The position numbers and the translations under genes are program-made. The notes beneath the pieces were generated by a model that was not told the DNA's origin, searched no databases, and was given only the letters and a program-made list of their open reading frames with translations. Positions 22,641 to 35,193 of a DNA stretch of 64,000 nucleotides are shown here, one piece after another. The stretch is taken from NCBI RefSeq assembly GCF_054482595.1, contig NZ_CM137008.1. One strand, 5' to 3'. The number at the start of each line of letters is the position of its first letter. Within the stretch, counting starts at the first letter, position 1.

Positions 22641-23621
22641 ATGGACGCAATAATATCGCCCGATTATTACTATGTTCTTACCGTTGCTGGTCAGTCTAAT
22701 GCCATGGCGTATGGCGAAGGACTGCCATTACCGGACAGGGAAGATGCGCCTCATCCCAGAATTAAACAATTAGCGAGATTTGCGCATACGCATCCCGGAG
22801 GCCCGTCATGTCACTTTAACGACATTATTCCACTGACTCACTGCCCACACGATGTTCAGGATATGCAGGGTTATCACCATCCTCTGGCAACGAATCATCA
22901 AACACAGTACGGCACCATTGGCCAGGCACTGCATATTGCACGGAAATTACTGCCCTTTATTCCTGATAACGCAGGGGTTCTCATCGTTCCATGTTGCCGT
23001 GGCGGATCGGCTTTTACCGCGGGCAGCGAGGGGACATATTCAGAACGGCACGGAGCCAGCCATGATGCTTGTCGTTGGGGAACGGATACTCCGCTATACC
23101 AGGATTTAGTCAGCAGAACGCGAGCCGCATTGGCAAAAAATCCGCAGAACAAATTCCTCGGCGTATGCTGGATGCAAGGCGAATTTGACTTAATGACCAG
23201 TGACTACGCGTCACACCCTCAACACTTTAATCATATGGTTGAAGCCTTTCGTAGGGATCTAAAACAATACCATTCTCAGCTTAATAATATTACTGATGCG
23301 CCCTGGTTCTGCGGCGATACCACCTGGTACTGGAAAGAAAATTTCCCTCATGCGTATGAAGCTATTTATGGCAATTATCAAAATAATATTTTAGCTAATA
23401 TTATTTTCGTCGACTTCCAGCAACAAGGTGCAAGAGGACTGACGAACGCGCCTGATGAAGATCCGGACGATTTAAGCACGGGATATTACGGTTCAGCGTA
23501 CCGGTCACCGGAGAACTGGACGACGGCACTGCGAAGCAGTCATTTCAGCGCGGCAGCCCGTCGGGGGATTATTTCTGACAAGTTTGTAGAAGCAATTTTG
23601 CAGTTTTGGCGCGAAAGGTGA
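22641..23621 (+). CDS. nanS: 9-O-acetyl-N-acetylneuraminate esterase NanS (SGNH hydrolase)
   Basis: 326-aa ORF with an N-terminal GQSNAMAYGEG SGNH-type motif; last gene of the nanCMS cluster. Confidence 0.85.
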   Translation: MDAIISPDYYYVLTVAGQSNAMAYGEGLPLPDREDAPHPRIKQLARFAHTHPGGPSCHFNDIIPLTHCPHDVQDMQGYHHPLATNHQTQYGTIGQALHIARKLLPFIPDNAGVLIVPCCRGGSAFTAGSEGTYSERHGASHDACRWGTDTPLYQDLVSRTRAALAKNPQNKFLGVCWMQGEFDLMTSDYASHPQHFNHMVEAFRRDLKQYHSQLNNITDAPWFCGDTTWYWKENFPHAYEAIYGNYQNNILANIIFVDFQQQGARGLTNAPDEDPDDLSTGYYGSAYRSPENWTTALRSSHFSAAARRGIISDKFVEAILQFWRER

Positions 23622-23775
23622 GCGTTCATTAATTTGATTTATTCGCATCCATCAGCGCTTTTAACTCCTCCGGCGTAAACGGTGGTTTGCGTAGGTGCAA
23701 CATCGCATGGCAATTAGGGCACACAGGCAGCAAAAAAACAAATGAGATCAAAGTAATATATCTTCACTTGCAGGC

Positions 23776-24705
23776 TTGAACAGCAGAAAATTTGCGAGCA
23801 TGATCGCAATTATTTCACTGCCAGGGATATCAATGGCTTCCAGTAAATCGCTACAGCAGGCAATTGCCAATATAAAAATCTGGCATAAGGGTGAACAGCG
23901 CGCACCGCATAAACCATTGTTATTGCTATACGTATTAGCGGGATACCTGAATGGACATCCACGCCTTTTCGATTATGGATCGGAAATCTACGAACCTCTG
24001 CACAGTTTACTGGAACGTTTTGGGCCACAGCGTTCACAGTACCGACCTGATATGCCGTTCTGGCGATTACAAGGCGACGGATTCTGGCAATTACACAATG
24101 CCGAGCTTTGCTCAACAGCAGGGAGCAGCCGACAACCGCCAGTGAAGGAACTGAACGAATACCACGTTGCAGGCGGTTTCGATGAACAGCACTACGCCTT
24201 GGTAACCGGCAATAAAAAACTCATCAATACTCTGGCGCAACAGATACTCGAAGCGCACTTCACCGAGAGTATTCAGGAAGAAATTGCTGACGAGCTGGGT
24301 TTTGATCTCCAGCAAATCCGTAAACAGTGCGACCCGTTATTTCGCAAAAATGTATTACGCGCTTATAAATACCAGTGCGCGATATGTGGCTTTAATATGC
24401 GCCACGACGACACCACCGTCGCGCTGGAAGCGGCGCATATAAAATGGAAACAGCACGGCGGTCCTTGTGAAATTCCTAATGGCCTGGCGCTTTGCGCAAT
24501 TCACCATAAAGCCTTTGATAAAGGATCGATTGGCCTGGACGAAAATATGCGGGTACTGGTATCAGATGCGGTAAACGGCGGAGGGATCGTTGAGAGATTA
24601 TTCTGGGATTTTGACGGGAAAACTATTGCGTTGCCGCAGGTGCGTAAAAATTACCCTTATGAGGTGTTTGTAGAGTGGCATCGGAAAGAGGTTTTTAGGG
24701 GGTGA
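23776..24705 (+). CDS. HNH-family endonuclease with an N-terminal domain of unknown function
   Basis: C-terminal motif YKYQCAICGFNMRHDDTTVALEAAHIKWKQHGGPCEIPNGLALCAIHHKAFDKG has the C-x2-C ... H ... N ... C-x2-H-H arrangement of HNH nucleases; the N-terminal ~190 aa has no domain I can assign; the true start may be the internal MASSK Met. Confidence 0.6.
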   Translation: MNSRKFASMIAIISLPGISMASSKSLQQAIANIKIWHKGEQRAPHKPLLLLYVLAGYLNGHPRLFDYGSEIYEPLHSLLERFGPQRSQYRPDMPFWRLQGDGFWQLHNAELCSTAGSSRQPPVKELNEYHVAGGFDEQHYALVTGNKKLINTLAQQILEAHFTESIQEEIADELGFDLQQIRKQCDPLFRKNVLRAYKYQCAICGFNMRHDDTTVALEAAHIKWKQHGGPCEIPNGLALCAIHHKAFDKGSIGLDENMRVLVSDAVNGGGIVERLFWDFDGKTIALPQVRKNYPYEVFVEWHRKEVFRG

Positions 24706-25017
24706 GGTAGCCATTATATATCTTTCACCTAGGATTTTAAATGTAATAGATAAAGTATTTTCTGACACCGAAAGTAGTATTTATGAGTACATAGCCACAA
24801 ATCAATTTTAAAATCTCAATATAAAATACGTTTACAAATATTCTAGTCAGAGTAAATATATATTCATTATAAGAGAATCCAATTATTAACCAATCGAAAT
24901 TACAAATTAAAAAACAATTGGCATGTTGAATTGTACACTAATTTATATACATAGTAAATTTACATCTATTCATGATATAATTATCGTGATATCAATTCAT
25001 TAATCAGGAAAATCATA

Positions 25018-25320
25018 ATGGAATTGTTAAATACTTATGATGATAAAGAAACAGCTGAAATATTTTTTGAAAAAATAGACGGAGAGAAAAGATTAGCAAG
25101 TGAGAGAGATGCTACAGAAACAGTCTATAACCTCTTCGGGCAACCAACATGGAAAAACTTTTATCTTCTTGATATGTTTAACCTAAAAGAGTTACAAGGG
25201 ATTATAGAGTGTAGAAAAAATGGACAGCCGTTCGACCAGGAACGACACAGGGAAATAATAAAAATGCTTGAATATGCAGCAAAATCGTTTGACCTAATTA
25301 TTCCTGCACATTGGCGATAA
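25018..25320 (+). CDS. Small hypothetical protein (100 aa), acidic
   Basis: ORF preceded by a good RBS (caggaaaatcataATG); very AT-rich; no recognisable motif. Confidence 0.35.
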   Translation: MELLNTYDDKETAEIFFEKIDGEKRLASERDATETVYNLFGQPTWKNFYLLDMFNLKELQGIIECRKNGQPFDQERHREIIKMLEYAAKSFDLIIPAHWR

Positions 25321-25323
25321 TAT

Positions 25324-25354
25324 CTGTTCCATATCTCACAGAGATATGGAACAG
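25324..25354. terminator. Bidirectional hairpin between the small ORF and the convergent 3-gene operon
   Basis: ctgttccatatct (25324-25336), 5-nt loop, agatatggaacag (25342-25354) is a perfect 13-bp stem, flanked by AT-rich sequence, lying between two convergent stop codons. Confidence 0.5.
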
Positions 25355-25366
25355 AATCATAATTAT

Positions 25367-28300
25367 TTACTCGCTAACCATCTTACTGAATAACTTCTCC
25401 AGATAAACGGGGCCTGTATCCTCAATAAAAAGCACATTTCTGGCTTCCAGATTTTCTTTTGAGTCAGGTACGTTTACTAAGTCAACATAACAAGTTTCAG
25501 AAACAATAAATGCACTTAATGATAAGTTATCATCCGATAATTTATGTTCAAGATTCTTAATTTCTTTATATAATCCGAACTTCGGATCATCAAGATTAAG
25601 ATTGCGAATGCCTTTTGGATCAATAAGACTTAGCCATTGTTTACCACTTTTATCATCGACTAACCACAATAAGAAATCCGGATAAAAATTACCCGCAGTA
25701 GCAAAGCCCAGGCCTTTATTTTTAGAATCCGCATTTCTTAGCAGATATAAACTTTTATCACCAATAATTTTCTGCCCTTTTGTCGAATCAACAAAAGACT
25801 GAAGATCCTGAACAAAAGTAATCTCGCTTGGCGCACCAAGTGCTGCCGGTCGCATTTTTAGCGGTATATTGGCATTTTTTTCAATCGAAAGAAGCGGGTA
25901 ATAGAGATGTTTATCAAAGGTAATAGCAACCATCCCGGATGCACTCCAGGATTTTGCTTTACCGATTTCGCCGTCGATGACCAATTGTTGTAATTGTTCC
26001 AGCCGACTGGCATAAGCCAACCCATCATCAGTTTCTTCGATCTCGAAATGGTACATTTTGATCATACCAGGATCATCTTCTTTCACCTGCGTGACTTCAT
26101 AAAACTGACCTTCATAAGCATTTTTCAAGGTGTTGTAAAAGCGATCAGTATAATCAGTCAGCAGACGAAGCATAATATCTTCCTGCTTAGCAATATCTGC
26201 ATATTGCTTAATCTCAAGCTCTGAAGCTGGAATCAAAAGGGTATACCAACTATTTCCGATCTTTGTCTTACCGGTACAAAAGTCGATCAAACGTTGTTTA
26301 TCCACACGTAAATTTGACCAGCCGCGTTGTAGTTTATAATTCTGAATGGCGAGATAAAGCCGATCAAAATCAAATGCACTAATGATTTTATAATCTAACT
26401 TCGCTTCATTGCGCACGTTAACCGGAGTATTGTCCCCTTTTCTGCTGGTATCAATCGACTCAAGTTTCGGGTATAAGTCCAGCTTAATATGCGGCTGCTT
26501 AATTTTCCCCTGAAAATCAGCAGGAACTTCATACAATTCAGGAAAATAGACACGTTTAAAGCCGAGTCTTTGATTATCTTTATAACCATCTTTAAGCTTA
26601 AGTGTTTTAAGCCTGGTTGCTGGCATATTTGGCCGAGTTTCAAAATTCAGCTCAAGGATCTCGTCACTTGGCGTAATCCCTTCATCTTCCAGGTATTGTT
26701 TAAAGGTTGCCATGTAATCGGCACGTACACCGAATACATTCAGTGTCTCTAATTTTTCCAGATGCAACCCTTTCGGACGCTCACCGGGTGTACTGCGTTT
26801 CAAAGAATAATTGCGACCTTTAAGGCGTACGCCACGACCAAATAACTGAATGATCTGTGAACCTTCTCCACGGCCCATATTGAGCAATCCCATCGTTGAG
26901 ACGCGCCAACTGCTCCAGCCTTCAGTAAATTTTCGCGAGCCGATCAAAATATGTAGTCGCGAGTCTTTGTCATTTAACGTATGAAAGAGTGACTTTGCAA
27001 AATCATCTCTCTGATAATCAAATGTCGTATCCTCTTCACACATTTTGTAAAGAGACGGTGCATCACCAATATTGATAAGGCCAAACGGTTCGGCCTCACC
27101 AACCTGTAATGCCAGTTCACCTTTACTGCCTATTAAATTCAGAACTCGCAGTCGCTGACCAGAGTGAGTGGTGTTAAACAAGCGAGAAAGAATATCTGCG
27201 TAGATATCTTCCGGAGCGTTCATTAGTGCAGTAAAGCGATTTTCAAAAATGTTACGCTCTTTGGTATCGAGGATTCGCGCTTTATTTTTAATGAGATCGT
27301 TAATCCACGCTTTTGCCTGCGTTTCGTGGTTTAAAAACCATGCTAAAAAACGCAATACTGCGTGAATGTCTGAATCTTCACCACTTACCGTATTACCGAC
27401 AAAAACCCACAGCGGTTTTTCGATATTAAATTCACTTAATTTTTCTTTATTCTTATTGAATAAATATTGTTGCTGATAAAAGCTGAGCAAACACGCGGTA
27501 AAATACTCATACCGACGCTCATCTTTTTTATCCTCTTCAGGATTAAGGTTAAGAATCAGTGATTCTTTACCATAACCATCCTCATAGAAGAATTTATAGG
27601 AGTAATCGAACAGAATCGATTTTCCATAGACCTCTCGCGTCGCCTGAATACGCGCATCTCGTTTTTCTTCGCTGGTTAATGCTATTTGCGCTAACTCTTC
27701 TTCGTTCAGTTTACCTAAGGCCGTTGTTTCAAAAAGCAGCTTTGCTTTTTTCTTCTGAATTTCTGTTTCAACTGCCTCAACATTATTGCCACCGGCTACT
27801 GCCTGGCCAAAAGTTGCTGAATATTCAAACGCAAATCCGTCACGTGTTAATTTGTCACGACGGCGCATCCAGGCACCAGCAGCACTTCCGGTGCCTTTAT
27901 GCCCTTCATCAATCAGAACCAGATTGTTGCCTTCAAATGCCTCAACGGCAACAGTTTTGTCACCCATTTCATCGGCAAGTTTATTGATATCAATAACTTC
28001 AATCGTGCCTTTGAAGGGCGCAGATTTACTCTTATCGAATAACTGGTATTGGGTAAATCCTGAGTTTTCCAGCTCATCTAAATGTTGCTTCGACAGGCGT
28101 TCATCCGGAGTAAGCAGGATGATTTTGTCGGGGTAATGGTGGGTATTACCGTTCTGGAAATAATGTAAGTATTGCAAAATATTGACATGCAATAGCAGTG
28201 TCTTACCAGAACCAGTAGCATTCCAGTATGCCAGTTTATTCAAATCATCCAGAATATATGATTTGAACTGATTAGCCCGGTCTTTTGCTGTTTTATCATT

Positions 28301-28747
28301 TTCAGCATTGTATGCTGCCAGCTCGTTATTTAGCCCATCGAGTAATTGCTGTTTACGATTGAAGTACCAGTCCAGGTAGATCTCGGTAAACAAAAGCGAC
28401 AAGTACTGAAAATATTTCATGTTCAGCACAGTGTCTTCTTTGCGATTACGGTGCTCAGTTATCTGCTGCCAGTGCTGCACGATATTGAGATCGTAACGAC
28501 GCAGTTCATCGAGATCGATAAGATCGACCTCGAATAAATAGTTACTCAGCTCATGGAAGAACAAACTTTGGCCATCCTCATGGATGCCTTCAAAGCGATC
28601 TTCACCTAACCGATTCTTCAGACCTTGCAATGTGCCATCTTTAAAAAAATGGAACATAAAGCGGTTCAAAACCAGTTGCTTATGAAAGCTCAGTTTGCTG
28701 TTTGTCTCTTTTTTAACAGCTTTACCGGTGGTCGGTTTTTTAGCCAT
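25367..28747 (-). CDS. SF2 helicase with C-terminal PD-(D/E)xK-like motif (Type III Res-like), third gene of the operon
   Basis: 1126 aa; Walker A NATGSGKT (~aa 177-183), DExH-like VLIDEGHKG (~aa 278-286), SAT-type motif III (YSATFG), motif VI-like QLFGRGVRL, and near the C-terminus YPDFLLWLVDDKSGKQWLSLIDPKG, which fits a PD-(D/E)xK nuclease signature; start overlaps the upstream gene's stop. Confidence 0.65.
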   Translation of the reverse strand: MAKKPTTGKAVKKETNSKLSFHKQLVLNRFMFHFFKDGTLQGLKNRLGEDRFEGIHEDGQSLFFHELSNYLFEVDLIDLDELRRYDLNIVQHWQQITEHRNRKEDTVLNMKYFQYLSLLFTEIYLDWYFNRKQQLLDGLNNELAAYNAENDKTAKDRANQFKSYILDDLNKLAYWNATGSGKTLLLHVNILQYLHYFQNGNTHHYPDKIILLTPDERLSKQHLDELENSGFTQYQLFDKSKSAPFKGTIEVIDINKLADEMGDKTVAVEAFEGNNLVLIDEGHKGTGSAAGAWMRRRDKLTRDGFAFEYSATFGQAVAGGNNVEAVETEIQKKKAKLLFETTALGKLNEEELAQIALTSEEKRDARIQATREVYGKSILFDYSYKFFYEDGYGKESLILNLNPEEDKKDERRYEYFTACLLSFYQQQYLFNKNKEKLSEFNIEKPLWVFVGNTVSGEDSDIHAVLRFLAWFLNHETQAKAWINDLIKNKARILDTKERNIFENRFTALMNAPEDIYADILSRLFNTTHSGQRLRVLNLIGSKGELALQVGEAEPFGLINIGDAPSLYKMCEEDTTFDYQRDDFAKSLFHTLNDKDSRLHILIGSRKFTEGWSSWRVSTMGLLNMGRGEGSQIIQLFGRGVRLKGRNYSLKRSTPGERPKGLHLEKLETLNVFGVRADYMATFKQYLEDEGITPSDEILELNFETRPNMPATRLKTLKLKDGYKDNQRLGFKRVYFPELYEVPADFQGKIKQPHIKLDLYPKLESIDTSRKGDNTPVNVRNEAKLDYKIISAFDFDRLYLAIQNYKLQRGWSNLRVDKQRLIDFCTGKTKIGNSWYTLLIPASELEIKQYADIAKQEDIMLRLLTDYTDRFYNTLKNAYEGQFYEVTQVKEDDPGMIKMYHFEIEETDDGLAYASRLEQLQQLVIDGEIGKAKSWSASGMVAITFDKHLYYPLLSIEKNANIPLKMRPAALGAPSEITFVQDLQSFVDSTKGQKIIGDKSLYLLRNADSKNKGLGFATAGNFYPDFLLWLVDDKSGKQWLSLIDPKGIRNLNLDDPKFGLYKEIKNLEHKLSDDNLSLSAFIVSETCYVDLVNVPDSKENLEARNVLFIEDTGPVYLEKLFSKMVSE

Positions 28748-28749
28748 TC

Positions 28750-31700
28750 TTAAACCTCCTCCGCAAACATCAGGTTCAAGAATTCAGGTTCGATCTGGCG
28801 GATTTTCAGGCTACGAACAATCTCGCCGTCTTCTTCATCAACGGTAAAGGCGGTAGGCAAGTTATGATCGCCATTGATATAGATAACGTCATACGTGTTT
28901 TCTTTTGCATACAAATCAAATCGGTTAGCATATTTATTCAATTCTTCATAACCGATCTTGTCGCAATCGCGCCACAGAATAAGGGTACGCTCGCCTGTTG
29001 GCAGCGTACCTTCAACACGCACATAGCCACGTTCGATATTGGATTCGATGGATTTCACATGTAATCCAATGAGATAGTTGAAAGTTTCAACTAAATCGAT
29101 GTTTTTACGCTCAGTGGCACCGGCGGAATCCGTCGCAATATCCATTTCGTAGTTAAATGGTTTTTTGAAATTATCGATTCCGAGAAAAGAATCTTTACTC
29201 TCATTTTTAATGAGATAATTTAATAGATAATCATTCCTCACATCTGAAGGCAATGTTTCGAAAAGATCTATGGGAGATTTTTTCAGTACTATATTATTTA
29301 AGCAATCTTCATAGCTTTCTAGTTTAATTGTTTTAAGAATATGTGATATACCGTTTTTATCCTGTGGATAACCTTTATTCCACTTATCGCTATAAACGGC
29401 TTTTACAATTCTAGCTTTTATAACTGAATCAGAATGTTCTCCCATTTCAACTAATATATATTTATGATCTTCAGATTTTTCTCTATTTCTATTAATAACA
29501 GCATGTGCGGTGGTTCCACTGCCGCCAAAAAGATCGACTATGGTTTCATTATTAGCACTATGCCATACTGAATCAATAACGCGTTCCATAGTACCTAAGG
29601 ATTTTGGATAAGAAAACAAACCTGCAGAGCCAAACATGGACGTTAATAAATTTGTGCCACCTATGGTAGCATTATATTGTGATCCTTGCCAAATACTAGG
29701 AAGCAGTAACCTTCTTGCGCTATCATGATATAATCTGTTTATGACAAATTTGTTTGAACTTACCAATTCACCTACTTCAATTGCTTTTTTAGCCCCTTCA
29801 TAAGAAAGCGACCAAACTCTTTCTTCCCCATTCTCACCAATGGGATAGACTCTTTTTAAACCTTCTTTGGTTTCACCTACCGGATAATTACCTTTTTCTA
29901 AAGGAACAGGTGGTGGTTCGACTCCTTTAACTTCAAATGTATCAGGGTCAACCAAAACTGCAAAAAAGCTTTCTGGACGACCAGGATTACCAATCCTAAA
30001 ATTATTATCTCCGGTACCAGCTCTTCTAAAACCTCTAGTTCGAATTCCATCCTCCACACTATCCCCTTTGAGAATATCCATTCCTTCTGGTATAGAAAAC
30101 AGACAATATTCATGTGTTCTCGAAACATTTGTTCTACCTGTCCCAGACCCAGGATAGTGCTCAACGATACATTGTAAAACCTCTCTTTCTGGATTGATAC
30201 TTTTTTCCAATTCTTTTAAAAGAGACATTTCTGTATCATCAATAGCATAACAAAAAACACCGTTATTATTTAATAGTTTTTTAGATAAAATGATTCTATC
30301 AGCCATTAATGTAGCCCATGAAGAATCCTTATATCCATTTTTATATAAGATAGGAGTTGCATCAGTATTATATGGTGGATCAAGATATATTATGCTTGTA
30401 CTTTTATCAAACTTAGTCTCAAGGATTTTTAGGGCTTGATAATTTTCAGAGTTGACCAATAGCCCATTAATCTCATTATCAATATTATCAATTGATCGAA
30501 TCAGTTCACATTTAAATTTAGAATCAAAAAAAGTAGTATCAACCATCAGATATGGTGAACTCTTGAGAAATTTCATATCCCGAGAGTTATGCTGTTGAAA
30601 TAGACCTAGCGTACTCCAATGTTTAAATTGTTTATCATTTACTAATATAGTTTGATAAAGAGCATCTGGAATTCTATCTAAAGTAATACAGTATTCCGTA
30701 GAAACAACAAACTTCTTCTTAGTCCAAAGTTTTTTCTGGAAATTCTCAATTTGTGCCAAAAATGTAATGAGTTCCAGTGCAACAGTACGCAAACATTGAA
30801 TCATGCGCAATTGTTTCTCAATATTGGCAAACACTTCTGCATTTTGCACATTATCGAGATTCATTACTTCATTTTTAATATAAAAATCCAGTTCGTTCGT
30901 TAAAAAACCACCGAGATCTTTATGGATAAAGTAGTCTGCTGTATTACGCTGGGTATAAGTTGTAAGGTGACGCTCCAACTCTGTACGTGACGGATTTTTT
31001 TCTGTTGGCGCACGTTTAGCAAGATCAACCCAATGCTGTTGAACTGTTTTATCTGCCAGAATTGTTGAAATAGCGGACTGTACTAAAGCATCCTGCTTAG
31101 TGCCCTTTTTCATTGCCTTATATTCGAAGTGAATAACTAACTCTTCTGTTTCAACGAGTTTACCGTCCACCACAGATGAGTTTTTCACCACTTCTACTGG
31201 CTTATATTCTTGTTCATACTCATCACCTTCTTCATCAATTTTGGTACGAACATGTGGCTCAATAAGTACAAAGCAGCGATCTAATTCATTATCCTTACGG
31301 TTATCTTTTGCTGTGTCCGCTGCGAGCAATTTAAAGCTAACTTTACGACCATCATCTAATTTAAATGAATAATTAGCAAAGTTTTCGCCACTTTTAATGT
31401 AGTACTGGTCCTTATTTGCCCAGTGCAACATCACTTCTTCGCCAGAATAAGGGATGGCGTAGGTATTACCTTTATAACGGCGTTTGCTGATAAAATCGCC
31501 GTTGTCATAATAACGAGAAAAGAAAGTGAGCAGATGGGAAAATACTGCATTTTCATGCTCATTTGCTCCGGATGCCATAGCCGCCAGTTGCTTTTTAAGC
31601 TCCTGTACTTTCGGGCTATCAGCAGGGTCCACACCCGCATCAGTTGCCGCTTTTATTGTCAGTTGCAACTGATGTTCTAATTCTGATTTATTGGCATTTC

Positions 31701-31884
31701 CTGCATCCGCCAGCGCAGACTGGATTTTGGCCTTCAGCTTATTATCCAGATAGTCGTTAATTTCATCAGCACGTGCATTTAAAATACGATAAATACCGAA
31801 ATCCAGTTCTGGTCGATCAATCTGAAAAATTTCTTTTAGCTTCTTAACTAATTCGTTGTACTTACTCATTATTTTCTCTTTCAA
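28750..31884 (-). CDS. Beta-class DNA amino-methyltransferase (N6-adenine or N4-cytosine; Type III Mod-like) with ~480-aa N-terminal extension
   Basis: 1044 aa; catalytic motif IV IIYLDPPYNT (~aa 498-507) lies before the AdoMet motif I DLFGGSGTTAHAV (~aa 784-796), the circular permutation of beta-class MTases; the N-terminal ~480 aa is unassigned. Confidence 0.7.
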   Translation of the reverse strand: MKEKIMSKYNELVKKLKEIFQIDRPELDFGIYRILNARADEINDYLDNKLKAKIQSALADAGNANKSELEHQLQLTIKAATDAGVDPADSPKVQELKKQLAAMASGANEHENAVFSHLLTFFSRYYDNGDFISKRRYKGNTYAIPYSGEEVMLHWANKDQYYIKSGENFANYSFKLDDGRKVSFKLLAADTAKDNRKDNELDRCFVLIEPHVRTKIDEEGDEYEQEYKPVEVVKNSSVVDGKLVETEELVIHFEYKAMKKGTKQDALVQSAISTILADKTVQQHWVDLAKRAPTEKNPSRTELERHLTTYTQRNTADYFIHKDLGGFLTNELDFYIKNEVMNLDNVQNAEVFANIEKQLRMIQCLRTVALELITFLAQIENFQKKLWTKKKFVVSTEYCITLDRIPDALYQTILVNDKQFKHWSTLGLFQQHNSRDMKFLKSSPYLMVDTTFFDSKFKCELIRSIDNIDNEINGLLVNSENYQALKILETKFDKSTSIIYLDPPYNTDATPILYKNGYKDSSWATLMADRIILSKKLLNNNGVFCYAIDDTEMSLLKELEKSINPEREVLQCIVEHYPGSGTGRTNVSRTHEYCLFSIPEGMDILKGDSVEDGIRTRGFRRAGTGDNNFRIGNPGRPESFFAVLVDPDTFEVKGVEPPPVPLEKGNYPVGETKEGLKRVYPIGENGEERVWSLSYEGAKKAIEVGELVSSNKFVINRLYHDSARRLLLPSIWQGSQYNATIGGTNLLTSMFGSAGLFSYPKSLGTMERVIDSVWHSANNETIVDLFGGSGTTAHAVINRNREKSEDHKYILVEMGEHSDSVIKARIVKAVYSDKWNKGYPQDKNGISHILKTIKLESYEDCLNNIVLKKSPIDLFETLPSDVRNDYLLNYLIKNESKDSFLGIDNFKKPFNYEMDIATDSAGATERKNIDLVETFNYLIGLHVKSIESNIERGYVRVEGTLPTGERTLILWRDCDKIGYEELNKYANRFDLYAKENTYDVIYINGDHNLPTAFTVDEEDGEIVRSLKIRQIEPEFLNLMFAEEV

Positions 31885-31889
31885 ATCAA

Positions 31890-34781
31890 TTAAATAACTT
31901 TCCAGCGGATGGAAAAAAGCTCGGTGATATCCGTTTTTTGCTTCATCCGCTCTTCAAGGGCACTGATGAGTTCATCCCGCTTGTCGGCGATCTCATCTTC
32001 AATGTCAAAAATTTCCATACGTTGGCGCTTCTGCTGCCGCTCCAGTAGCTTCAGCTTTTCCTGGTTTTGCTTTTGTTCTTCGATCGATTGTGCCAGTCTG
32101 GCTTCTCGCTTCAACGACTTGATTTGCATTTTGGTATCGCGTAATGCTTCTTCCGCCGCAAAGATCATGTCTTCAGCCCATTTTTCCAGCTTATCTCTTT
32201 CCGCTTCAAAAAGGACATTGTTCTGCTCCAAAACTTCCGCAAGCCTGGCGTCAATTTGCCTGTTCTTGAGTAAGATCAAGTCATCAGGTAATGCATCTAA
32301 ACTTGCCGAATTATCCAGCTTTTCGTTGGTTATTGCAGACAAGTTGAACAGACGTTTACAAGCCTCACCATCTACCACACGGCCGCTGTCAGTTTTCGCG
32401 GTAAAGACTAAAAATTGCTGCCGGTTAAACGCATCAACAGTAAGCAAATTTAGTGTTAACCACCCTGATAGCCCTTTCAGCTGCTCAGCCACCGAGACTT
32501 TCGTTGTGTGGTTACTGTAATCGAAGATGACTTCAGCTGTTTTCGTCTCCTGGGCTTTGGCTCCCTCAATGACGTACTCACCCAGCGGATGATTGATCCG
32601 ATATGCAAAACTGTGGTGATCCTGCATTTGTAACGCACTATTTTGCCTGCCATCTTTGCGCAACAGCTGATACTGCCCCACAGGCAGTTCATTGACTGAC
32701 TCACGTAAAGTAAAACGATGATGCTCATGATCAAAATCAGCATATTGTTTGAGCTGCTGACAGGTAACGGCCCAAAACCAACGACCGACTTTATCCAGAC
32801 GCTCCCGAGCTTCATCAAGCCTTATTTTAAGGATATCGTGAATATCTTCATCAAAATGCTCAAGCAACTGTTCCTGCGTCTTCTGCATCTTGAGATTGAT
32901 TTCATCTTCCAGCTCTTTCTGCAACCTTTCAAAAGCCAGCTCTATCTCCTCGGGGGTACGGCATGACTCATAAATTGACTGGATCCTTTTTTCAAAATCC
33001 ACTCCATTTTCTATGCTGCCAAGCACACTATCCGATGCACCAAACACGCCATCAAACAGGCTGAACTTTTCAGTTAAGAGTTCAAGAACTCGTTGATCGG
33101 CCTGGTTTCGCTGATTGAGGAAGTTAATAACAACCACATCAAACTTTTGCCCGTATCGGTGACAACGCCCAATACGCTGTTCAATGCGTTGTGGATTCCA
33201 GGGTAAATCGTAATTGATCAGTAGCGAACAAAATTGCAGGTTCACCCCTTCAGCTGCAGCTTCTGTAGCTATCATGATTTCAGCATGATCTTTGAAGTGG
33301 TCGATCAAAGCCGAGCGTTTATCAATTTGCGCCGACCCGGTAATACGAGAAGATCCCTGATATTCCTCGCGCCATTGCTGGTAGATCTTGTTTGCCTGCG
33401 GTGTATTGTTTGTGCCACTAAAGGTTACTACTTTCCCCTGGTAGCCATTGTTTTCCAGAAAATGTGCAAGATACTGTTGAGTTCGCATTGACTCCGTGAA
33501 GATGATGACTTTTTTTGCAGCCCCCATTTCGGCAAGCTGTGCAAAACCTTGCTCCAGGCCAGAAAGCAACTCTTTTGATTTGGTATCAGTGCCAATCTGT
33601 TCTGCTTTGACAATGAGTGATTCCAGCTCATTGATTTCTGCCTGAAGCGCGTCTGAATCGACAACTTTGCACTCGGTATCTAAAGCCACTGATTCGGCAT
33701 CTTCCACGATGTCATCTTCAAGATCGTCATCCATTATGATCTGTTGGATGATGTTCATATCATCTTCAACGATACCTTCCAGCTTTAACCTTTCTAAACG
33801 ACTCTTAAGGATCTGCAAGTTATTCAATACAGCTTTCGTACTTGAGGAAAGTAGCTTTCTGAGAATAAGCCCCGTCAGATGCCGGTGTCGTTTTGGTAAG
33901 GCATAGCTATCCTCACGTTCAAGCAATTTTTGTACGCGTTCATAAAGATCCTGCTCCTGTTCGCTCGGATAGAAAGGAATAGTGATCGCTTTACGTTCTG
34001 TATACTTGATGTACTCCAGCACATTCTTGCGTAAAGTTCGTTTGATAAAACGCGACAATCGCCCCTTCAACTCCGCAATATCGCTATCTGCCTGCATATA
34101 TTGCTTTCTGAACGCTTTAACTTCGCCGAAGGTATGTTCATCTATAAGCGTCGACATGCCATACAGTTCCATTAACGAATTCTGTAAAGGCGTTGCGGTC
34201 AGTAGTAATTTTTTCCGCCCATCAAGCGCACGCTTTAACGCTTGCCCCATTTTGTTACTTTCTCGATGAGCATTACGCAGTTTATGGGCTTCGTCGATAA
34301 CAACCAGATCCCACATTTCAGCCACCAATTTTTCTTCTAACCGAGCAGCATAGTGGTATGACATGATAGTGATCGATTTATTATTTAAGGGATTATGGAT
34401 CCCTTCTTTTTGAAGCTGGCTATACGTTTTCGCGTCCAACACCTGAGAAGGTAGATTGAACTTTTCCTGTAACTCGCTCGCCCATTGGCGACGCAGTGAA
34501 GCAGGACAAATGATCAACAGTTTACGTTTTCTTTCAGCCCACAACTGGCAAAGCACTAACCCCGCTTCAATGGTTTTACCTAAACCAACTTCATCGGCAA
34601 GCACAACACCTTTGCTTAGCGGATTTTCAATAGCAAAAAGAGCCGCCTCAATTTGATGAGGATTTAGATCTACGCTTGCATCAAACAGCGATTGAGACAG
34701 ACGGTCCACCCCATTGTTTGAATGGAGAATGGAAAGTTCATGCGCAAAATATTTCGCATGATAAGGTGTTGTACCAATCAT
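31890..34781 (-). CDS. SNF2/RAD54-family helicase, first gene of the operon
   Basis: 963 aa; motif I LADEVGLGKT (~aa 61-70), motif II VVIDEAHKLRN (~aa 160-170), motif III LLLTATPLQN, motif VI QRIGRCHRYGQK; long charged coiled-coil C-terminus. Confidence 0.75.
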   Translation of the reverse strand: MIGTTPYHAKYFAHELSILHSNNGVDRLSQSLFDASVDLNPHQIEAALFAIENPLSKGVVLADEVGLGKTIEAGLVLCQLWAERKRKLLIICPASLRRQWASELQEKFNLPSQVLDAKTYSQLQKEGIHNPLNNKSITIMSYHYAARLEEKLVAEMWDLVVIDEAHKLRNAHRESNKMGQALKRALDGRKKLLLTATPLQNSLMELYGMSTLIDEHTFGEVKAFRKQYMQADSDIAELKGRLSRFIKRTLRKNVLEYIKYTERKAITIPFYPSEQEQDLYERVQKLLEREDSYALPKRHRHLTGLILRKLLSSSTKAVLNNLQILKSRLERLKLEGIVEDDMNIIQQIIMDDDLEDDIVEDAESVALDTECKVVDSDALQAEINELESLIVKAEQIGTDTKSKELLSGLEQGFAQLAEMGAAKKVIIFTESMRTQQYLAHFLENNGYQGKVVTFSGTNNTPQANKIYQQWREEYQGSSRITGSAQIDKRSALIDHFKDHAEIMIATEAAAEGVNLQFCSLLINYDLPWNPQRIEQRIGRCHRYGQKFDVVVINFLNQRNQADQRVLELLTEKFSLFDGVFGASDSVLGSIENGVDFEKRIQSIYESCRTPEEIELAFERLQKELEDEINLKMQKTQEQLLEHFDEDIHDILKIRLDEARERLDKVGRWFWAVTCQQLKQYADFDHEHHRFTLRESVNELPVGQYQLLRKDGRQNSALQMQDHHSFAYRINHPLGEYVIEGAKAQETKTAEVIFDYSNHTTKVSVAEQLKGLSGWLTLNLLTVDAFNRQQFLVFTAKTDSGRVVDGEACKRLFNLSAITNEKLDNSASLDALPDDLILLKNRQIDARLAEVLEQNNVLFEAERDKLEKWAEDMIFAAEEALRDTKMQIKSLKREARLAQSIEEQKQNQEKLKLLERQQKRQRMEIFDIEDEIADKRDELISALEERMKQKTDITELFSIRWKVI

Positions 34782-35170
34782 CTTTTCTCTCTCTTCGCTG
34801 TACTTTTGACGATAACCTGCTGAATTGAATCAAGATAGTAAAAGGATACGCCAATAGTGGTTGATCCTTGAAGTAAGGACATCTCCGGTTGCGGGCCTTT
34901 GACACATAAAATCAGCAATTTTACGCATCGTTTCATGGCTAAACAATGGCACATTAAGAATGCCACTCGCTAAATGCAATCTATTTCCTGAGCCATTAGA
35001 CCAAGGCAATGAAGTTTTATATCTACTTAATTTTCAGGATGATGAATGAACATCATTGATGGGAATGGGGCTTCCGAAGTTCTTAGATTATCAGCGTTAC
35101 ATACAAACAAAGTAGTGAAAACACAGGCACAAAAAAAGCCGCCCTTGAGCGACTCGATTTGCATACGATG

Positions 35171-35193
35171 TGGTGCGAAGGCCGGACTCGAAC
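35171..35193 (-). other. tRNA 3'-end fragment (leuX-like T-arm plus acceptor), probable att-site remnant
   Basis: Reverse complement ggttcgagtccggccttcgcacca has the T-loop GGTTCGAGTCC and a CCA end, closely resembling the 3' end of E. coli tRNA-Leu (leuX) as recalled; the sequence to the right does not continue as a tRNA. Confidence 0.55.

Follow-up and report, generated by a model that had tools for sequence, protein, structure and literature searches.

Immediately downstream of nanS, on the minus strand, lies a non-functional pseudogene remnant of a 216-amino-acid HNH endonuclease gene, made by a 583-bp deletion; we put the probability of this reading at about 0.95. The stretch of DNA analysed (64,000 nucleotides, hereafter the window) derives from the fim/nan region of E. 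coli and includes nanC (20726-21451), nanM and nanS. The remnant is already known, since RefSeq flags an identical E. coli sequence as a pseudogene: the remnant sequence of strain XH990 (L002) has 100% identity to that of the window, and PGAP labels its 105 bases 'HNH endonuclease, incomplete, missing N-terminus'. The features discussed are the following.

22641-23621, plus strand: nanS (sialate O-acetylesterase), convergent with the remnant
23540-23629, minus strand: 29-codon ORF MNAHLSRQNCKIASTNLSEIIPRRAAALK, antisense to the nanS 3' end and homologous to YthB residues 6-32
23629-23734, minus strand: HNH endonuclease remnant, identified by orthologous DNA; last 34 codons and TAA stop
23723-23734, no strand: deletion junction, sole surviving copy of the repeat ACAGGCAGCAAA, present in two copies in intact strains
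23735-23832, no strand: residual intergenic region separating the divergent former HNH and SBD-HNH genes (alignments)
23833-24705, plus strand: intact SBD-HNH phosphorothioate-DNA-binding restriction endonuclease gene, EcoWI family (NF045808)

Results

The remnant frame and its intact orthologue

The open frame beside nanS comprises 40 codons (window 23629-23751, minus strand) and translates, between two stops, as RYITLISFVFLLPVCPNCHAMLHLRKPPFTPEELKALMDANKSN. Its TAA stop (23629-23631) is seven bases past the nanS stop codon at 23619-23621, which agrees with the sequence-only reading, where the frame was placed directly after nanS. The same reading had put the upstream stop about 20 codons away and had seen no start codon. 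The stop is in fact a TGA at 23764-23766, 10 codons before LLPV, and the frame does lack ATG and GTG, but it contains a formal TTG at 23751 that gives a 40-aa ORF. No Shine-Dalgarno sequence was found before this TTG in the window sequence. The length of the frame is unremarkable, for 87 ORFs of 30 aa or more were counted in or across the 10 kb around it. Pfam and NCBIfam searches with the 40-aa remnant and the 29-aa ORF gave no match, as would be expected of pieces this short, and so the identification had to rest on orthologous DNA.

A full-length parent, which the sequence-only reading had proposed to look for in related genomes, was found at the same locus. In strain 2014C-3050 (L001) it is a 216-aa HNH endonuclease, WP_001037966.1, encoded on the minus strand at L001 3070-3720, with a sequence that ends ...DLLPVYPNCHAMLHRRKPPFTPEQLKALMDANKSN. 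In intact strains the gene is convergent with nanS and divergent from the SBD-HNH (EcoWI-type) gene. The HNH-derived part of the 40-codon frame is its final 34 codons (23632-23733, LLPVCPNCHAMLHLRKPPFTPEELKALMDANKSN), beginning at parent residue 183. This segment is in-register orthologous DNA, with frame and stop codon shared with the intact gene, and it matches the 3' end of the HNH gene at 31-33 of 34 codons in the five intact alleles retrieved for this locus. It is this homology, and not the length of the frame, that places the remnant beyond chance.

All family-invariant residues of the segment are kept (P185, P188, N189, C190, H191, A192, L194 and H195), and the remnant has the second zinc knuckle and terminal His of the nuclease (CPNCH...LH; C187, P188, N189, C190, H191, H195). 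The earlier suggestion of a C-terminal zinc-ribbon end whose 5' part was lost is thus borne out by the full-length HNH gene at the same locus elsewhere. Of the other residues expected of an HNH domain (PF01844), the catalytic His-His pair 163-164 and the first CxxC zinc ligands (C141, C144) are absent and lie in the deleted 583 bp; the N-terminal head-like domain of ScoMcrA_N-HNH proteins is present in the parent and absent from the window. The window therefore has an intact orthologue at the same locus and has lost the start codon and essential residues, which is the pattern of a pseudogene. The remnant retains the ancestral Cys187, but carries R196L at a conserved basic position. Its frame is open in 7/7 deletion alleles compared. 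Nuclease activity of the remnant should not be possible, and it is very unlikely to be translated.

A 583-bp deletion between direct repeats

The window lacks exactly the 583 bp between two copies of a 12-bp repeat, ACAGGCAGCAAA, and both sides are collinear with intact strains. The repeat occurs twice in strain 2014C-3050 (L001 3164 and 3747) and once in the window; the intact gene has one copy within codons 182-186 (D-L-L-P-V), and its 5' leader holds the second, 27 nt before the ATG. The deletion took away 182 codons together with the ATG, its AAGGA Shine-Dalgarno sequence and 26 nt of leader; the catalytic His-His pair and the first CxxC went with them. The final 34 codons are now fused to former leader sequence, and the MISFVF codons and upstream TGA of the 'ORF' are that noncoding HNH 5' leader. 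The structure of the junction suggests that the 583 bp would have been lost by replication slippage or by short-homology illegitimate recombination at the 12-bp direct repeats.

The junction register is identical in 7/7 deletion alleles (the window, XH990, KO11FL, AR_0069, AR202.2, 2013C-3264 and SMBL), which stand on diverged backgrounds, with 92.5-100% identity to the window within an 80-nt probe. The retained repeat copy is polymorphic, being either ACAGGCAGCAAA or ACAGGAAGTAAA, and the Cys/Tyr187 polymorphism is present among intact and deleted alleles alike. With its junction shared by more than 1,200 genomes on diverged backgrounds, the deletion is likely to be old or recurrent. Given these two polymorphisms, a single origin requires later recombination. 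Recurrent deletion at the repeats is possible; a single deletion event followed by recombination is more economical, and is preferred here, because the perfect 12/12 repeat pair is found only on some intact backgrounds (2014C-3050, EC28).

In the residual intergenic region, a candidate -10 element, TATATT, was read by eye at 23755-23760 (minus strand), and a promoter scan gave no consensus sigma-70 promoter at threshold for the remnant. Upstream of the SBD-HNH ATG at 23833 there is a palindrome, TTGCGAGCATGATCGCAA, at 23792-23809, with perfect 6-bp arms (TTGCGA GCATGA TCGCAA), a possible operator or hairpin. K-12 is without this palindrome because of a separate ~60-bp deletion (window ~23793-23852), and the SBD-HNH start codon has also gone there.

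The neighbouring gene and the edge of the AT-rich block

The gene divergent from the remnant scores 433 bits against NCBIfam NF045808 (cutoff 180), matches the ScoMcrA SBD at E = 6.5e-8, and contains HNH_2. The EcoWI family has been characterised in vitro and in vivo (PMC7461809). Identity of the neighbour with EcoWI itself was considered and dropped, as the EcoWI papers give no accession or sequence, and the assignment is one of family membership only. Beyond this gene lies an AT-rich block with the following content.

24710-34781, -: AT-rich block (PADLOC, GC profile, breakpoint)
25018-25320, plus strand: hypothetical protein, 100 aa
25367-28747: Type III res (PADLOC)
28750-31884: Type III mod (PADLOC)
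31890-34781: DrmD-like SNF2 protein (PADLOC)

With a 1.9-kb probe, most genomes, whether with the deletion or the intact allele, match up to query 1149-1151, which is window 24708-24710, just after the SBD-HNH stop at 24705; the AT-rich block is entered by only 51/5,426 genomes. The GC content is 46-50% over 23.5-24.5 kb and then 33% past ~24.5 kb. The edge of the block is consequently at ~24.71 kb (about 24,709), and not near 23.74 kb, where the sequence-only reading had drawn the insertion boundary. In intact strains the sequence that corresponds to window 23735 and beyond, with the SBD-HNH gene, is directly upstream of the HNH start, and because of this contiguity the remnant and the SBD-HNH gene belong to one block.

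A site lacking the HNH/SBD-HNH pair, the empty site expected from an insertion, was not seen, and even K-12 keeps fragments of both genes: its identity to the window breaks at 23624/23625, and it still has the start codon of the HNH gene, the sequence upstream of that codon and a fragment of the SBD-HNH gene. A link between the deletion and acquisition of the adjacent Type III methyltransferase was also considered and rejected, as deletion and intact alleles both occur without the block.

Frequency of the deletion and other states of decay

Of 5,426 complete E. coli genomes searched by megablast with window 23560-23900, 4,926 gave a match. In many of these the match was split in two pieces, with a span of 924 bp instead of 341 bp, and an 'HNH endonuclease' was annotated beneath. 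The HNH gene interior is present (coverage >=80%) in ~1,237 of the 5,426 genomes. Counted with the 80-nt probe (>=80% matched), of which intact alleles match only 57% and hence are not counted, the 583-bp deletion junction is found in at least 1,214/5,426 genomes, or at least 22%; an upper estimate, from subtraction of the gene-interior result from the megablast result, is ~1,490. A different junction, that of K-12 (a ~641-bp deletion), is found in 1,741/5,426 genomes by the same kind of probe (80 nt, >=80% matched). Altogether about three quarters of complete E. coli genomes are without an intact HNH copy, and at least two frequent, different deletions contribute to the loss of this gene.

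Other states of decay were seen in individual strains. The remnant of strain VTB96937v is truncated at window 23676, to ~16 codons, by an unrelated island with two large hypothetical proteins (L013 2501-2700). EC974 and O157 strains have lost nanS along with the HNH gene; there a nanM fragment adjoins the sequence upstream of SBD-HNH, next to a Zorya type II system (L014 2258-2574).

The reference 'intact' allele, WP_001037966.1, has Tyr instead of Cys187, a zinc-ligand position, and 662 genomes match the interior of this Tyr187 allele at >=99% identity. Given Tyr187, some 'intact' copies may also be impaired.

The parent gene and its relatives

The five intact alleles are under purifying selection (dN/dS 0.06-0.35, dS up to 0.17), which is why we regard the parent as a real gene under selection. 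It has 1,054 homologues (E <= 0.001) in Enterobacteriaceae and beyond, with the precomputed domains PF26345 (ScoMcrA_N) and PF01844 (HNH); the name ScoMcrA_N (PF26345) is taken from the precomputed annotations of the homologues. The E. coli parent is itself under the Pfam HNH cutoff (17.9 vs 21.4 bits), whereas homologues pass. In a 66-member alignment C141, C144, H163, H164, N189, C190, H191 and H195 are invariant, and C187 is conserved in >=90% of members.

Sequence searches of the parent against solved structures matched ScoMcrA residues 29-92 (the 'head' region; E = 1e-3) and the HNH of EcoKMcrA (E = 0.018). The AlphaFold model of the parent has a pLDDT of 82, and its top Foldseek match in the PDB is EcoKMcrA 6ghc (E = 1.6e-3). 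ScoMcrA 5zmm is matched with 28% identity and an rmsd of 2.5 A over 85 columns (probability 1.0), and the matched region would, judging from the sequence match, be the head domain. Foldseek also matches the HNH domains of Cap5 and Cas9. PADLOC mREase_IV matches were weak (E = 1e-4 and 2.5e-4). The parent is made up of a ScoMcrA-head-like domain and a McrA-like HNH zinc-finger nuclease, and is probably a Type IV (modification-dependent) restriction enzyme.

The closest relatives of the remnant are the ScoMcrA_N-HNH proteins (PF26345 and PF01844; WP_001037966.1 / WP_001037969.1), a class annotated as 'HNH endonuclease' or '5-methylcytosine-specific restriction enzyme A'. The remnant is their orthologous 3' end at the same locus, with the same frame and stop, but has 34/216 codons; the head, first CxxC, His-His, start and ribosome-binding site are gone. 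ScoMcrA of Streptomyces coelicolor (5zmm), a Type IV enzyme with the order head-SBD-SRA-HNH, is like the parent in its N-terminal domain by both sequence and fold, and no function is known for its head domain (PMC6224610). The ScoMcrA-type SBD is carried by the divergent neighbour, and the gene pair jointly holds the head, SBD and HNH modules. Unlike in ScoMcrA, these modules are divided between two proteins in E. coli, and the SRA domain is missing. With EcoKMcrA (McrA of the e14 prophage, 6ghc) the parent shares the C-terminal HNH zinc-finger type of nuclease (CPNCH..LH), but the N-terminal reader domain differs, and the likeness, one of nuclease, does not in itself point to 5mC recognition by the parent.

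Genomic contexts of homologues

A head-HNH gene is divergent from an SBD-HNH_2 gene (289-290 aa) in 4/12 contexts examined, namely the E. coli nanS locus, Citrobacter farmeri, Klebsiella aerogenes and Klebsiella sp. R445, and the three pairs outside E. coli have unrelated flanks (L016 2952-4636, L022 2987-4636, L030 1952-3651). The SBD-HNH partner is missing in the other 8/12: two Pantoea, Pseudescherichia, Citrobacter freundii, a metagenomic contig, Sulfurimonadaceae, and two transfer-gene contexts. The latter two, beside conjugative-transfer genes (TraI_2, ArdC), are those of an E. coli paralog and of a close relative from read assemblies; in the Sulfurimonadaceae context an unclassified HNH_2 protein is nearby. 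Obligatory pairing of head-HNH with SBD-HNH is excluded by these counts. A mobile two-gene cassette exists in one clade, and the pairing is clade-specific. Large AAA_11/AAA_12/PLDc_2 helicase-nucleases adjoin the head-HNH homologues in Pantoea and Pseudescherichia.

YthB of K-12 as a second scar of the same gene

The small protein YthB of K-12 (32 aa, MNKLPAHLSRQNCKIASTNLSEIIPRRAAVLK; L003 5981-6079) consists of the first five HNH codons (MNKLP, then AHLSRQ...) fused in frame to a short ORF. Its start is the ATG of the HNH gene, with the AAGGA Shine-Dalgarno sequence, and YthB is a scar of the ~641-bp K-12 deletion in the same HNH gene. In the window, the corresponding 29-codon ORF is annotated 'hypothetical protein' by PGAP, and its ATG overlaps the HNH stop (TAATG), as it does in other strains. 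K-12 ythB and the window thus share the HNH gene, the locus, and a 27-codon ORF antisense to the nanS 3' end. They differ in what was deleted: K-12 keeps the ribosome-binding site, the ATG and five codons of the HNH gene, whereas the 583-bp deletion of the window removes these and keeps the 3' end. It is because these elements are fused in frame to the ORF that YthB protein is made in K-12.

YthB has been detected as a tagged protein in K-12 (bioRxiv 10.1101/511675), and a list of convergent excludons includes ythB-nanS (PMC12288877). These two reports indicate that the HNH promoter and translation start are active. An origin of YthB from an HNH gene is absent from the titles and abstracts of the eight papers found to mention YthB. 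The parent HNH promoter probably survives in the window, and an antisense transcript may run across the remnant into the nanS 3' end, by analogy with the ythB transcript of K-12. K-12 leaves similarity with the window inside the SBD-HNH gene (~window 24100) and runs into the yjhR helicase pseudogene (L003 6645-7885); yjhR has no nucleotide similarity to the Type III res gene over the compared stretch (window 23401-29000).

Other features of the window

Relative to XH990 the window has a 1.33-kb insertion at 18542-19870, in the fimB-nanC intergenic region. It contains overlapping ORFs with HTH_Tnp_1 (136 aa) and rve (301 aa), and on account of these it is assigned as an IS3-family insertion sequence. 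Collinearity with XH990 ends ~24 nt into the 3' end of tRNA-Leu (leuX), at window ~35170-35193; ARAGORN finds no intact tRNA, leuX included, anywhere in the window. Past ~35193 comes a CP4-57-like island module (DUF932, antirestriction protein, RadC/JAB, CbtA toxin, DUF5983), a sign that a second island has probably integrated at leuX. In most RefSeq records fetched, PGAP calls nanS as a short pseudogene fragment, 'incomplete, missing C-terminus' (L002 2304-2648; L003 5145-5648). The nanS ORF of the window is uninterrupted over 326 codons, and these fragment calls look like an annotation quirk.

Discussion

Three other explanations of the frame beside nanS were weighed. The sequence-only reading attributed the loss of the 5' part to insertion of the AT-rich HNH/defence block, with a boundary near 23.74 kb, and the surroundings lend this some appeal, as the remnant is in the variable interval from leuX to nanS and AT-rich defence genes are ~1 kb away. 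We reject it as highly improbable, and regard the deletion as unrelated to the insertion of the block. Intact strains are collinear with the window to the left and right of 23723-23734, the sole difference being the 583 bp between the repeats; many genomes without the block have the deletion allele too, and their matches end at window 24708-24710; the GC content stays at 46-50% through 24.5 kb; and the block is in 51 genomes, against at least 1,214 with the deletion. That the frame is a chance one with a fortuitous CxxCH motif would fit the abundance of ORFs of such length in all frames, and the sequence-only reading had tied this possibility to the peptide having no homologue anywhere. A homologous HNH gene is found at the same locus, in-register and matching 31-33 of the 34 residues with every family-invariant one kept, which leaves chance with a negligible probability.

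It is also conceivable, if very unlikely, that the 40-codon frame (from TTG 23751) or its transcript has been kept for a function, either as a zinc-knuckle micro-protein or as an excludon-like antisense RNA modulating nanS. The allele is frequent, at 22% of genomes or more, the frame is open in all seven alleles, and the counterpart transcript of K-12 is expressed, with ythB-nanS among the listed convergent excludons. Inheritance alone, however, predicts openness over 34 codons, and the frame has neither an ATG or GTG start nor a Shine-Dalgarno sequence before the TTG. Its N-terminal 6 codons are former leader, the window carries R196L and other alleles C187Y in a zinc ligand, the remnant alone has no family match, and other lineages delete or truncate the same segment. 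A pseudogene remnant left by the 583-bp deletion accounts for these observations.

A wider view of the locus is more tentative, and we hold it to be unlikely as a whole: the head-HNH half of a mobile cassette would have been inactivated independently at least four times, the remnant being one case, and the cassette would be a split ScoMcrA whose costly half is lost and whose promoter is kept. The four inactivations would be the 583-bp deletion, the ~641-bp in-frame scar of K-12, the island truncation, and the loss together with nanS. Head-HNH and SBD-HNH would act together as a split ScoMcrA, and head-HNH would be lost repeatedly as costly, through self-toxicity or conflict with resident or new methyltransferases. 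The surviving HNH promoter would keep driving antisense transcription into nanS.

The remnant matters little in itself, and its modest value is that of a worked example of the decay of a defence locus, in which the junction gives a base-exact mechanism, deletion at a 12-bp direct repeat. The true edge of the AT-rich Type III R-M / SNF2 block is moved to ~24.71 kb. The dead HNH gene may also account for how the K-12 small protein YthB arose.
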